Below are positions 1,057 to 7,413 of a stretch of 32,000 nucleotides of DNA, piece after piece. Each line of letters starts with the position of its first letter. The stretch's first letter is position 1. Position numbers and translations under genes: made by a program. A model generated the notes under the pieces. The model made no database searches. It was not told the origin of the DNA and saw only the letters and a program-made list of their open reading frames with translations. Source of the DNA: an uncultured Cytophagales bacterium (GTDB taxonomy: Bacteria > Bacteroidota > Bacteroidia > Cytophagales > Cyclobacteriaceae); the NCBI GenBank assembly GCA_963787095.1, contig CAWBCB010000152.1, forward strand, positions 5,119 through 37,118, in the 5' to 3' direction.

Positions 1057-1672
1057 AGAGCGAAGGATCTCCCCATCAGACAAACGGCTTTCTTATTAGG
1101 GGATCCTTCGCTCTAGTATACTTCGGTCAACGAAAATGTTGTGTCTTCATGCAAGCATCATATACGAATGGCACAAGCTGGCCGCTCAGGATTGCGTTTC
1201 AATTTTTAGCGCGACCCGGAATCTACGATCAGTGATTTAACAAAAGTGGTTCGTGAGACACGAACCACGGAATAGGGAAGTGGTGTCATGAGGACACGAA
1301 ACAAGGAGTATGCATCAAATAAGTACCGGTCATTCCGGGCAAACAAGATACTTTTGATACAAAAACAAAAATGTAGTACTGGTACTTGTTTTAACTATTA
1401 AACCTGGCGCGACCCGGAATCTACGATTAGTGATTTAACAAAAGTGTTTCATGGGGCACGAACCACGGAATAGGGAAGTGGTGTCACGAGGACACGAAAC
1501 AAGGAGTAGGCATCAAATCAGTACCGGTCATTCCGGGCAAGCAAGATACTTTTGATACAAAAACAAAAATGTAGTACTGGTACTTGTTTTAACTATTAAA
1601 CCTGGCGCGACCCGGAATCTCCGATTAGAGATTTAATAAAAGTGGTTCGTGGGTCACGAACCACGGAATAGG
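1057..1672. repeat. repeat block A. It comprises a 58-nt hairpin (1057-1114), a ~94-bp leader, and a 198-bp tandem array (heads at 1209, 1407, 1605)
   Basis: GCGCGACCCGGAATCT recurs at 1209, 1407 and 1605, an exact 198-bp period. Units 1209-1406 and 1407-1604 differ by only about ten substitutions. The third unit is truncated after the ~66-nt head module. Each head carries GTGGTTCGTG-N3-CACGAACCAC (e.g. 1246-1268). Confidence 0.95.
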
Positions 1673-1738
1673 GGCAAAGGAATTTCCTATTAGAATATTT
1701 ACTCAAATTTAAGTTTGAAAACGTAAGAGCGTTGGCCC

Positions 1739-1896
1739 GGCCGAAAAGCCTGCCTGCGCGGAGCTTCGGCATAGGCAGGCGGGGTGGTGTGTTGGCATGA
1801 GGGGGGAAGCATTTTTCGGCCTTGACCTTTTTCGTTCTTTTTGTGCCTGCCTGCACGGAGCCGTTTCGGCAAAGGCAGGTCTAAGACAAAAAGAAC
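1739..1896. repeat. pair of nested GC-rich stem-loops between the two repeat blocks
   Basis: GGCCGAAAA (1739-1747) / TTTTCGGCC (1813-1821) encloses GCCTGCCT (1748-1755) / AGGCAGGC (1773-1780). GTTCTTTTTGT (1834-1844) / ACAAAAAGAAC (1886-1896) encloses CCTGCCT (1846-1852) / AGGCAGG (1873-1879). Confidence 0.8.
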
Positions 1897-1960
1897 AAAG
1901 AAAGAAAGTTTGATGCAATCTGTTTGCTGATGAAGTTAGTGTGTAAGTAAAATACATGAA

Positions 1961-2450
1961 AGAGCGAAGGATCTCCCCATCAGACAAACGGCTTTCTTAT
2001 TAGGGGATCCTTCGCTCTTGTATACTTCGGTCAACGATTAGGTTGTGTCTTCATGCAAGCATCATATAAGAATAGTGAAAGCCAACCGCTCAGGATTGCG
2101 TTTCAATTTTTAGCGCGACCAGGAATCTCCGATTTAGTGATTTTAATAAAAGTGTTTCGTGGGTCACGAACCACGGAAGAGGGAAGTGGTGTCATGAGGA
2201 CACGAAACAAGGAGTAGGCATCAAATCAGTCCCGGTCATTCCGGGCAAGCAAGATACTTTTGATACAAAAACAAAAAATGTAGTACTGGTACTTGTTTTA
2301 ACTATTAAACCTGGCGCGACCCGGAATCTACAATTAGTGATTTAACAAAAGTGGTTCGTGGGGACACGAACCACGGAAGAGCGCGACCCGGAATCTCCGA
2401 TTAGTGATTTTAACAAAAGTGTTTCGTGAGTCACGAACCACGGAAGAGGG
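1961..2450. repeat. repeat block A-prime, a second copy of the hairpin + leader + head/tail array (heads at 2113, 2314, 2381)
   Basis: 1961-2018 repeats the 1057-1114 hairpin almost exactly and the leader is also repeated. After that come one full head+tail unit (2113-2313) and two consecutive head-only modules (2314-2380, 2381-2450). Confidence 0.95.
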
Positions 2451-3785: not shown

Positions 3786-3797
3786 GCTACATATTAA

Positions 3798-3819
3798 GAG
3801 GGTAGAATATTCTACCCTC
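3798..3819. terminator. bidirectional hairpin between convergent genes
   Basis: Perfect palindrome GAGGGTAGAAT/ATTCTACCCTC, lying between the stop at 3785 (+) and the stop at 3823 (-). Confidence 0.6.
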
Positions 3820-3822
3820 CCT

Positions 3823-4197
3823 TTAGTCGGTCAAAAAATTGAACCAGGATTTCTTGTCCTTGGGTGTTTTCTTTTGGATTTCTTCCACTTCACGAATGAA
3901 ACTGGAAATATTTGCGTCTGCATACGTGCCGTAAGCATCAATAAGAATTCCTTTTTTTCCATCTTCTGTATGAATAAGATAGAGAACCGCATTGTCTTCA
4001 GGATCGGAGTAACCTTCAAATCTGTAAAAGTTTGAGATGGCTGTATTCTCAGGTGTGAAGGAAGATTTTTTATCTTCGGTGGTCATCTTCTTTCCCGAAA
4101 TCTTGAAGTTTTCGGTATATCCTTTCTCCACGGCATCATTAATGCATTCGGAAAGAGTCTTCATTTTTTGTGTAGCATCGCTTTCAAGAGTGTCCAT
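3823..4197 (-). CDS. hypothetical protein (124 aa)
   Basis: Clean ATG ORF with protein-like composition, and the terminator hairpin sits directly downstream. I do not recognise a family with confidence. Confidence 0.7.
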   Translation of the reverse strand: MDTLESDATQKMKTLSECINDAVEKGYTENFKISGKKMTTEDKKSSFTPENTAISNFYRFEGYSDPEDNAVLYLIHTEDGKKGILIDAYGTYADANISSFIREVEEIQKKTPKDKKSWFNFLTD

Positions 4198-5677: not shown

Positions 5678-5940
5678 GGTCAGGCGACCATAGTCGTTAA
5701 CTTAAGGATAAATTTTTTATAAAAGCCTTTATATGTCGTCCCTACAGGACTTAAATGCACTCGTCTATATTATTTACCAACATGTCGTCCCTAACGGGAC
5801 TCAAGTATAAAGACACCTTCCAGTCCCGAGGGATGAAATATTGGTAATAGACAACAGTACTCTTTTAAAAATCCCTTTAGGGATGAACTATTAATTCCTA
5901 TAAACAGAATGTATCGATCTCTTGTGCCTTCGTGCCTAAA
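5678..5940. repeat. mosaic of TCCC-N-GGGA hairpin modules in both orientations, bounded by inverted arms
   Basis: GGTCAGGCGACCATAGTCGTTAAC (5678-5701) is the inverse of GTTAACGACTATGGTC at 5941. Modules: ATGTCGTCCCTACAGGACT (5733-5751), TTACCAACATGTCGTCCCTAACGGGACT (5775-5801), AGTCCCGAGGGATGAAATATTGGTAA (5822-5847), ATCCCTTTAGGGATGAAC (5871-5888). Confidence 0.85.
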
Positions 5941-6700
5941 GTTAACGACTATGGTCAGGCGACCAGTCGTTACATAAGCATAGACGCGTATGAGAATTCT
6001 ACGTTTGACTTCACACAAACACTTTAGTGAATGTGGAATTTGTATTTCATCCCTATTACCAATATATAGTTCCTAACGATTTTGGAGGGAGACTTTATTT
6101 TAGTCCCATAGGGACGACATGTTGGTAACAATGAGAGCGAGGTGAATTAAAGTCCCATAGGGACGACATATTAATTTTCGCAAAGCATACCTTACGTTAA
6201 CGACTATGGTCAGACGGCCAGTCGTTACAAAAAGTATAGGCGCGTATGAGGATTCTACGTTTGACTTCACACAAACACTTTAGCGAAAGTGGAATTTGTA
6301 TTTCATCCCTATTACCAATATATAGTTCCTAACGATTTTTGGAGGGAGACTTTATTTTAGTCCCATAGGGACGACATGTTGGTAACAATGAGAGCGAGGT
6401 GAATTAAAGTCCCATAGGGACGACATATTAATTTTCGCAAAGCATACCTTACGTTAACGACTATGGTCAGACGGCCAGTCGTTACATAGAGCATAGGCGC
6501 GTATGAGGATTCTACGTTTGACTTCACACAAACACTTTAGTGAAAGTGGAATTTGTATTTCATCCCTATTACCAATATATAGTTCCTAACGACTTTGGAA
6601 GGAGACTTTATTTTAGTCCCATAGGGACGACATGTTGGTAACAATGAGGGCGAGGTGAATTAAAGTCCCATAGGGACGACATATTAATTTTAGCAAAAGC
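5941..6700. repeat. three direct tandem copies of a ~256-bp structured noncoding unit
   Basis: GTTAACGACTATGGTCAG starts at 5941, 6196 and 6453. Each unit has four elements. First, an AACGACT..GGTC-AGRC-GRCC-AGTCGTT hairpin. Second, an ACAAACACTTT-AGYG-AAAGTG-GAA-TTTGT hairpin. Third and fourth, two AGTCCC-ATA-GGGACGACAT hairpins 49 bp apart (e.g. 6103-6115 and 6152-6164). Confidence 0.95.
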
Positions 6701-6849: not shown

Positions 6850-7413
6850 ATGGAAGGAAAACCACCTAAGAAAAAGAAGAAACCGGGTAGGGGACGAGAG
6901 ACCTTGTTTCGCTCGGCCTATCAAAACCAAAGCAACCTGATTCAAATGGCTGATAATAAAGCGAACATCATTATCAGTATCAACACCATGATCATCTCTT
7001 CCATTATTGCCATTACGGGTTACGGTGCAGTGGCCGGTAAAATAGATACCTATGAGGCAAGTGTAATGGTACCTATTGTAATGATCATTCTTTCCTGCCT
7101 GGTCTCTGTAATTTTTGCCATCCAGGCAGCACGCCCTAAATTAATTCAGGCGAAAGCCGAAGGCGGTGAAATGCAAAAGTCAAGTTTACTTTTTTTTGGT
7201 GTGATATCGCGACACTCCCAACAAGACTATCTGACTAAAATGAAAGACCTGCTAGACTCGGATACCGATTTGTATGAACACATGACTATCGACTTGCACA
7301 ATCAAGGGAAAATTTTGAAACGCAAATACAACTTGCTGGCCTATGCCTATCAGGTATTTATGTTTGGGTTTATCTTTAGTGTGTTGGTGTTTTTAGGGTT
7401 TCTTGCTTTTTAG
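6850..7413 (+). CDS. DUF5706 / PycTM-like (Pycsar-effector-type) membrane protein, stand-alone
   Basis: 187 aa. A Lys-rich N-terminus is followed by ETLFRSAYQNQSNLIQMADNKANIIISINTMIISS and hydrophobic helices (about 45-70, 75-100 and the C-terminal 165-187). It also carries the KRKYNLLAYAYQVFMFGF signature. I recognise this pattern as the membrane module fused to HD domains in Bacteroidota and found as the PycTM effector (Pfam PF18967). Confidence 0.85.
   Translation: MEGKPPKKKKKPGRGRETLFRSAYQNQSNLIQMADNKANIIISINTMIISSIIAITGYGAVAGKIDTYEASVMVPIVMIILSCLVSVIFAIQAARPKLIQAKAEGGEMQKSSLLFFGVISRHSQQDYLTKMKDLLDSDTDLYEHMTIDLHNQGKILKRKYNLLAYAYQVFMFGFIFSVLVFLGFLAF

Follow-up and report, generated by a model that had tools for sequence, protein, structure and literature searches.

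What kind of element is a tandem repeat with a period of 198 bp that lies in a gap without genes, with a DUF4230 gene on one side and a cytochrome c gene on the other? The question is raised by a stretch of 32,000 nucleotides (the window) from an uncultured bacterium of the Cytophagales, family Cyclobacteriaceae (assembly GCA_963787095.1, contig CAWBCB010000152.1, positions 5,119 to 37,118). A first-pass annotation of the window had described the repeat as an array of six 'heads' and three 'tails', and had proposed that it represents small structured RNA genes, a mosaic similar to bacterial interspersed mosaic elements (BIMEs) or miniature inverted-repeat transposable elements (MITEs), or a scaffold for protein binding or recombination. 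Our follow-up indicates that the gap at 740-2485 is likely occupied by a lineage-specific family of short non-coding mosaic repeat modules of 16 to ~280 nt, and that the 198-bp array is a single local amplification within this wider family. Essentially the whole of 740-2485 is a chain of about nine module types, most modules containing an imperfect palindrome, and unique DNA is found only at 2486-2741. The annotation was right that the gap is free of genes but underestimated the array, whose extent and composite nature go further: what remains of the gap also consists of repeat modules, and not of unique spacer.

The array itself is largely as first described. Its first head, H1 (1209-1275), is composed of a 16-nt G-box, GCGCGACCCGGAATCT, a linker, the hairpin GTGGTTCGTG-AGA-CACGAACCAC and GGAATAG; on the minus strand, the hairpin followed by TTTTGTTAAA resembles a terminator. 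The G-box is exact at 1209, 1407, 1605, 2314 and 2381 and has one mismatch, a C>A change, at 2113, making six matches where shuffled sequences give 0.07, with no other in the 32 kb. The remaining heads are H2 (1407-1473), H3 (1605-1671, by motif and repeat search), H4 (2113-2181), H5 (2314-2380, by motif search, Tandem Repeats Finder and repeat search) and H6 (2381-2447), which is joined straight to H5 with no intervening tail. The first tail, T1 (1276-1406), harbours the GTGTC-N5-GACAC hairpin reported earlier, an L-box, TCATTCCGGGCAAACA, at 1330-1345, a TACTTTTG box at 1349-1356 and an AT-rich core, while T2 (1474-1604) and T3 (2182-2313) were delimited by repeat search and pairwise identity; all of these features are on the plus strand. 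Tandem Repeats Finder reports 198 bp x2.3 at 1209-1673 with 94% matches and 67 bp x2.0 at 2314-2448, and the repeat search recovers three 198-nt copies and the head family. The coordinates given for the six heads, the three tails and both periods are thus confirmed, and the loops of the head hairpins (AGA, GGG, GGT, GGT, GGGA and AGT) were also correctly read.

The hairpins are less regular than was claimed. All six window copies share one and the same right arm, CACGAACCAC, but this arm varies outside the window. A 10-bp inverted repeat is intact in only three of the six heads, those at 1407, 2113 and 2381 having one or two mismatches with a left arm that reads GTGTTTCGTG or GTGTTTCATG (GTGTTTCATG with two stem mismatches in H2, GTGTTTCGTG in H4). 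The complementarity of ATTCCGGG at 1332-1339 to CCCGGAAT holds; nevertheless, the partner of ATTCCGGG that is conserved in a relative is the G-box of the next head, 76-78 nt downstream, and not that of the head of its own unit.

The array comprises two paralogous blocks: 1057-1673 reads leader-H-T-H-T-H, 1961-2447 reads leader-H-T-H-H, and a 280-nt module that we call U lies between them; self-comparison gives 92% identity between 1057-1473 and 1961-2381. Within the window the heads are 86-93% alike, with incongruent site patterns, and the tails 96-98%, a pattern compatible with exchange among copies and with a tail of more recent origin. Between the first two units we counted nine substitutions, close to the ten or so reported. 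The array is indeed not brand new, as its paralogous heads differ to this extent and yet it is almost identical between two strains. An assembly artefact was rejected because the same array is found in independent assemblies: two Joint Genome Institute (JGI) metagenome assemblies of a sister strain (L010 and L011) contain the same six heads, and the last two heads are also present on a short Logan contig (L012) that begins at window position 2302. The non-coding nature of the array was confirmed too. The 37-codon ATG frame of unit 1 becomes ACG plus a stop in unit 2, and the unit at 2113 contains a stop. With frames broken between units, no Pfam match for any open reading frame (ORF) of the gap and nothing but a 38-amino-acid ORF proposed by the gene caller in L010, the coding hypothesis was discarded.

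That the array belongs to a wider family emerges from its relatives, which we found via homologues. Near homologues of the flanking cytochrome c are annotated from Cyclobacteriaceae metagenome-assembled genomes (MAGs); an exact-protein look-up of the window's own DUF4230 and cytochrome c proteins and of P0001 gave no record. The sister strain (L010, L011 and L012; 99% amino acid identity in cytochrome c) has the same arrangement as the window. Two sister species, one at 90% (L013, GCA_016787755.1) and the other at 87% (L014, L015 and L016, GCA_021155195.1), have a single leader-head pair upstream of cytochrome c, with further modules distributed over several gaps elsewhere. In L025, which is another locus of the L013 genome, the modules have the opposite orientation, and a further Cyclobacteriaceae MAG (L001) has just one head, 40 nt past the stop codon of greB. 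Counting the head, leader, C, B, X and U modules, we found them in five separate gaps in L013, three in L014 and two in L025, in orders and with truncations that vary from gap to gap, and in at least 10 gaps when L001 is included. More distant relatives (L017-L022; 78-79% identity in cytochrome c) have a gap of 55-110 bp upstream of cytochrome c, with no modules, and the window's own species has none in the 20 kb surrounding greB (L024). A search of 185,579 species-representative genomes with the head pattern returned one true match, L001, and one chance match in a high-GC coding region. The seven matches in JGI metagenome contigs were all due to chance, in unrelated DNA, as was the single match of the head pattern in viral contigs, where the leader pattern had none; a blastn search with 895-2500 against plasmids and phages gave no match. 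The family is therefore real, dispersed and confined to a narrow clade. Literature searches on intergenic repeats of Bacteroidetes and Cyclobacteriaceae found no description of it.

The other modules of the gap, all on the plus strand, can be followed from the DUF4230 gene onwards. Module A (741-781) is a hairpin, TAGTCGTCAAGACCACTTCAAGTGGTCAGACGACTA, immediately 3' of the DUF4230 stop codon, with 95% identical copies at the same place after DUF4230 in L013 (6683-6723) and after cytochrome c (L013 11185-11223). Module B (828-893), also recognisable as the CCCCCGCAGGCGGGGG module, contains CCCCCGCAGGCGGGGGTAAGGGGGTGG followed by an A-run; it has a 91% identical copy at L013 11066-11131 and four copies in L014. 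Module C is present as two tandem copies (895-1031) with a period of 71 bp (71 bp x1.9 by Tandem Repeats Finder), each with AGTCCAATCC and a CGAACCAYGAATGGGTTTCG hairpin, and its core AGTCCAATCCTGA, searched with two mismatches allowed, which admits the related CCAATCCTGATCCGCCAG variant, is found about 12 times in L013 and five times in L014, always on the plus strand. The leader, module E, is 152 nt long in its first copy (1057-1208), where a long imperfect palindrome, AGAGCGAAGGATC...GATCCTTCGCTCT, is followed by ...CATGCAAGCA...CAGGATTGCGTTTCAATTTTT; this copy is 92% identical to the second (1961-2112), which was identified by repeat search and self-comparison. The motif at the 3' end of the leader occurs nine times in L013 and four times in L014. 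What looked like a unique spacer between the two blocks, module U (1694-1960), is a dispersed module of ~280 nt with two stem-loops, which matches L025 4615-4890 (minus strand) at 87.5% identity over 280 nt and L013 3598-3902 at 73%. It harbours two nested hairpins of the GCCTGCC...GGCAGGC type: one of 31 nt, CTGCCTGCGCGGAGCTTCGGCATAGGCAGGC (1750-1780), in the loop of its first stem, and another of 35 nt, GCCTGCCTGCACGGAGCCGTTTCGGCAAAGGCAGG (1845-1879), in the loop of its second stem, which belongs to a direct-repeat family and whose filled and empty sites were aligned. The chain ends with module X (2448-2485), which contains a GGTGAAGAACACCAA hairpin and was also identified as the GGTGAAGAACACC module. 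There are four copies of it in L013, where it is again the last module before cytochrome c (9886), and one in L014 in a different gap (4965). Beyond the unique DNA, a conserved non-repeat stretch just 5' of the cytochrome c start codon (2742-2804; 87-89% identical to L013 9939-10000 and 84% to L014 9951-10000) is probably the promoter and 5' leader of cytochrome c itself, which would place the array upstream of it.

Short-period tandem repeats adjoin module-rich gaps in both sister species (43 bp x6 at L013 4616-4893; 21, 42 and 84 bp, x16, x8 and x4.5, at L014 5008-5383), and the intergenic DNA of this clade is unusually repeat-rich. Several genes called in the public assemblies (L013 1772-2047 and 7517-7972, L014 4762-5334) overlap mosaics or short-period repeats and have no Pfam matches; they are probably spurious and caused by the repeats.

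How might such a mosaic arise? The head itself is a composite. L014 has the G-box followed by any of three distinct sequences, the hairpin half stands alone, with no G-box, at L014 4889, L013 9274 and L025 6405, and the G-box is preceded by the 3' end of either a leader or a tail. In L001, a hybrid of the leader (CATGCAAGCA) and the tail (GCAAGCAAGATACTTTTGATA) is joined at a shared GCAAGCA, which suggests recombination at a microhomology. Insertion is documented directly. The 31-nt (1750-1780) and 35-nt (1845-1879) hairpins are found in the module U of the window and in one of its two L025 copies, whereas the L013 copy and the other L025 copy lack both. In addition, the 31-nt element is inserted, reversed, in one of the four copies of another module (L014 4536-4665, with the hairpin at L014 4592-4630). 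Filled and empty hairpin sites thus occur in three places, in either orientation. A GC dinucleotide flanking both sides, a candidate target duplication, is compatible with two of the three sites but not with the third. Since these small hairpins have both filled and empty sites inside modules, the mosaic grows at least in part by nested insertion.

Local amplification is also recurrent. L013 has arrays built from other combinations of modules: 404 bp x3, at the DUF4230-side position equivalent to that of the window array, 204 bp x1.9 and 240 bp x2. The window itself contains a second, unrelated array at 5941-6697, with three 257-bp units at 96% identity, each containing GTCCCATAGGGACGACAT palindromes, and an inverted partial copy at 5686-5850. 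This array lies upstream of a PycTM gene (6850-7413), where the sister strain L010 has 255 bp x5 and L014 roughly one partial copy. The ORF at 6850-7413 matches Pfam PycTM (a Pycsar effector; E=1.7e-26), and the genes adjacent to it differ between the window and L010.

We envisage a process at the DNA level in which modules spread and become reshuffled. Part of it is the nested insertion of small hairpins shown above, and another part is probably recombination at short shared motifs such as GCAAGCA. The resulting composites may then have been amplified locally, through unequal recombination or slippage between repeated modules, giving rise to arrays with long periods. At the present locus, the starting point would be the leader-head pair common to the sister species; a tail would have been acquired in the lineage of the window, the composite amplified to H-T-H-T-H, and a leader-H-T-H block then duplicated.

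Such behaviour has precedents. BIMEs, found in Escherichia coli and its relatives, are based on repetitive extragenic palindromic (REP) units. The family described here resembles them as a dispersed intergenic mosaic in which a small set of palindromic units and linkers is assembled in variable combinations, with tandem amplification (198, 204, 240, 257 and 404 bp here) whose multiples, in BIME-2 and in BIMEs of atypical type, differ by locus or strain, and with incidental roles at transcript ends. The likeness extends to the proposed mode of propagation, the model for BIMEs being one of transposition or recombination and then local amplification (PMC3333891). In a REP unit, an imperfect palindrome of 20-40 nt, a conserved tetranucleotide, which is GTAG in E. 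coli, lies 5' of the foot of the stem (PMC3333891), and inverted REP doublets are called REPINs (PMC3116915). The modules differ from these elements in several respects. The palindromes of the window are all direct, with no REP/iREP pairs and no inverted doublets of the REPIN type, the only inverted repeats being the arms of internal hairpins. The head hairpin (23-24 nt) is preceded by AACAAAAG and the nested hairpin by GAAAAGC or TTTTTGT, so that there is no shared 5' tetranucleotide. The modules reach 150-280 nt and the array periods 198-404 bp, compared with 20-40 nt for REPs. Finally, there is no REP-associated tyrosine transposase (RAYT, a Y1 transposase) among the called genes of the fetched loci and no sequence similarity, and the host belongs to the Bacteroidota.

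The BOX elements of Streptococcus pneumoniae reportedly have the structure boxA-boxB(n)-boxC. Like the present family, they are modular, dispersed, non-coding intergenic repeats with a predicted stable structure, in which one module occurs in zero to several direct tandem copies and whose function is largely incidental. They differ in belonging to another phylum, in sharing no sequence similarity, and in having a frame, A...C, that is fixed and complementary at its ends, with copies that number in the hundreds per genome, whereas the window family has many more module types in many orders and no fixed frame. The mycobacterial interspersed repetitive units (MIRUs), variable-number tandem repeat (VNTR) minisatellites, are said to be 46-101 bp long and to lie inside operons with small overlapping ORFs. 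With these, the modules share direct intergenic tandem arrays of tens to hundreds of bp, an orientation linked to that of genes and a copy number that varies by strain (257 bp x3 against 255 bp x5 in the second array); the units of the window are composite, longer and non-coding. Correia elements can carry promoter or terminator activity. Together with MITEs and REPINs, they resemble the modules as small non-autonomous elements with hairpin potential; filled and empty sites are seen for the 31-35-nt hairpins, and for neither head nor tail. Unlike MITEs, the head, the tail and the 198-bp unit have no terminal inverted repeats, and the 8-bp ATTCCGGG/CCCGGAAT pair is internal to a longer conserved sequence on both sides; target-site duplications of the head and tail are not clear. 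An integron cassette array, in which attC sites with R''-L''/L'-R' boxes would delimit single cassettes devoid of promoters beside an intI integrase, was rejected, as no locus has an integrase, the module ends show no RYYYAAC...GTTRRRY frame and the gap of the window holds no cassette. A clustered regularly interspaced short palindromic repeat (CRISPR) array, with identical repeats of about 24-48 nt and unique spacers of comparable length, was also rejected, since what lies between heads is again a repeat (tails 96-98% alike) or, at the H5-H6 junction, nothing at all. The best reading is thus that of a new, clade-restricted family, similar to BIMEs and BOX elements in behaviour yet belonging to neither. 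The view that a tandem array of this kind is unusual in a compact bacterial genome is therefore only partly fair, as similar arrays recur in the clade and tandem modular repeats are known elsewhere (BIME-2, BOX, MIRU).

If the modules are repeat DNA of this kind, several observations sit uneasily with it. In all three tails of the window the L-box, TCATTCCGGGCAAGCA, stands 76-78 nt ahead of a G-box, and it does so again in two L014 copies, where the core is different; as this spacing is kept across species, the conserved unit is the 3' half of the tail plus the first 16 nt of the next head, and not the head+tail phase. The outer stem formed by the two boxes (8 bp, 76-78-nt spacing) is kept between the window and L014 around these different cores, 5 of the 22 predicted pairs of the element are compensated, and an inner hairpin has three compensated pairs between the window and L014 on the plus strand, in a comparison that involves two lineages only and an uncertain alignment. 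In module U, a comparison of L025 4370-4530 (minus strand) with L025 4600-4895 and window 1738-1825 revealed four compensatory double changes in a 9-bp stem between the two L025 copies (GGCCGAAAA/TTTTCGGCC against GAACGAATG/CATTCGTTC). Some hairpin, whether of RNA or of single-stranded DNA, thus appears to be preserved. Compensation is also expected for hairpins recognised in single-stranded DNA, and the lineages are too few to conclude. The modules also point the same way as the genes in seven of the seven gaps between co-directional genes, which may point to some constraint imposed by transcription or replication, unexpected for pure junk; this is a lead only, as the loci are few and physically linked. 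As for mobilisation, the called genes of the fetched loci, ~150 kb in all, include no transposase, RAYT or integrase, so that no mobilising enzyme emerged, and the repeat search found no terminal inverted repeats or clear target duplications bounding the head or tail. Finally, the window and its sister strain differ at just seven of ~1600 positions in 1205-2804, with zero differences in 1205-1789, compared with 48 of 708 positions (6.8%) in the DUF4230 gene and 23 of 981 in the cytochrome c gene.

This last point might be taken as a sign of purifying selection on the array. However, the block of low divergence (0.4%) extends over 1205-2980, including unique DNA and the start of cytochrome c, before divergence returns to 2-4%, and L012 represents the same strain as L010. 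As the block runs on through unique DNA to 2980, no selection on the array can be inferred, and the idea was abandoned. The uneven divergence between 1205-2980 and 32-739 looks like a recombination tract between strains. The comparison does show that the paralogous units, 5-14% different, had diverged before the two strains separated, with a stable copy number ever since.

Could the modules nevertheless be small structured RNA genes, or parts of one long non-coding transcript, with the head hairpin and the L-box/G-box element as RNA structures and a promoter in each tail? The TACTTTTG box, on the plus strand at 1349, 1547 and 2255, is the sole promoter-like element; it matches the Bacteroidetes -7 consensus, TAnnTTTG, and is retained by L001 as well as by the three tails. 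On either strand, the fold of the 198-nt unit is more stable than that of shuffled sequences (z = -2.5 and -2.95), the outer stem of the L-box/G-box element does not vary and an inner hairpin has three compensated pairs between the window and L014, the modules are co-oriented with neighbouring genes, and the array is nearly identical between strains. Nevertheless, no -33 TTTG is found at the right distance from TACTTTTG, the L014 equivalents have no -7 box, the compensated pairs come from two lineages with an uncertain alignment, and the low divergence between strains reaches beyond the repeats. Every intact head hairpin, read on the minus strand, has TTTTGTTAAA after it, as in a canonical terminator, so that the only terminators oppose the strand of the only promoter-like box; with signals on opposite strands, no gene is defined. 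A sigma-54 or sigma-70 promoter in the leader was also considered and rejected, as TGGCAC-N5-GGCC is lost in the second copy and a sigma-70 scan gave fewer sites than shuffles. The proposal that the hairpin pattern reflects selection on a structure is not supported either. In a covariation test on 12 head copies with 500 shuffles, 85% of the cells are paired, 6 of 10 pairs depart solely by broken pairs, and the covariation score is reached by 119 of the 500 shuffles, while the right arm varies outside the window and half of the window copies have stem mismatches on either strand; similarly, the left arm of the leader palindrome exists as two wholesale-swapped variants facing a constant right arm. 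The Rfam comparison that the first-pass annotation had proposed matched no known family: Rfam 15 gave nothing at the gathering threshold in the window, L001, L013, L014 or L025, and at E<5 returned only hairpin matches at chance level (mir-3910, 26.7 bits against 95; STnc390, 17 bits against 50). A scan for tRNA and tmRNA was also negative. Moreover, modules are freely truncated and recombined, which is unlike RNA genes. We therefore regard the small-RNA explanation as improbable, and an even smaller probability attaches to the heads being domesticated terminators or insulators, stacked against antisense transcription into the DUF4230-cytochrome c region. All five terminator-like sites in 700-2850, where 2.0 are expected from shuffles, are head hairpins on the minus strand, and the single L001 head, 40 nt after the greB stop, is in the terminating orientation; but there is no head after greB in the window's own species or in L025, mismatches weaken half of the six hairpins, and no evident minus-strand gene or promoter would need six terminators, the next minus-strand genes lying beyond the plus-strand cytochrome c gene, which has its own convergent terminator region at ~3790-3830.

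It is also conceivable, if unlikely, that the modules are functional DNA sites, bound by nucleoid or recombination proteins or serving as scaffolds that bound exchangeable cassettes in a flexible region. The gap between DUF4230 and cytochrome c is indeed a variable spot. In the window and the sister strain it contains no genes, whereas embedded between module blocks there are a 97-amino-acid antitoxin-like ORF and a zeta-toxin-like gene in L014 (8300-9340), and a CarboxypepD_reg gene and a transglutaminase-core gene in L013 (7972-9190). Thus, sister species hold different genes between module blocks in the same gap. Nearby genes are variable as well and partly defence-like (GmrSD, AAA-WYL-UvrD, PycTM), and palindromes such as the GGATCC-centred arms would suit dimeric DNA-binding proteins. 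The same association is, however, predicted if repeats merely accumulate in permissive gaps or recombine passively there; the comparison involves three species, no recombinase or integrase adjoins the arrays in any locus, and no attC-like organisation in R and L boxes is visible.

Among the three explanations proposed at the outset, the BIME/MITE-like mosaic is thus the one that gained support, as the modules are shuffled, truncated and found in both orientations and their small hairpins have filled and empty sites; small RNA genes keep a low probability. The modules represent repeat DNA, selfish or structural, of a sort well known from bacteria, and not a proven array of RNA genes. Most likely they are selfish or neutral, with incidental effects at most. 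Candidates for such effects are hairpins that end or stabilise transcripts and tracts of homology that favour the gain or loss of neighbouring genes.

Interspersed mosaic repeats are well documented in Proteobacteria and Firmicutes and hardly so in Bacteroidota. Taken alone, this family opens no long-standing question. It is tempting to speculate that the modules are the footprint of a new strand-specific mobilisation system of Cyclobacteriaceae, for instance an enzyme of the HUH type, or another that acts on single-stranded DNA, with the L-box/G-box stem-loop and the GCCTGCC...GGCAGGC hairpin as its recognition sites, or else a clade-specific family of structured non-coding RNAs, with arrays marking the boundaries of cassette exchange. 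The co-orientation in 7/7 gaps, the 76-78-nt spacing of the stem around variable cores and the compensated stems are compatible with this idea without demonstrating it, and we give it a low probability. If true, the arrays would mark the exchange boundaries of toxin-antitoxin or defence-like cassettes in flexible islets. As for the mosaic repeat family itself, its confirmation on complete genomes would provide a marker for strain typing, as array copy number differs among strains, and would call for caution with gene callers, several called 'genes' in the relatives overlapping repeats. It would also offer a tractable case of how nested insertion and local amplification build 2-kb non-coding tracts in compact genomes.

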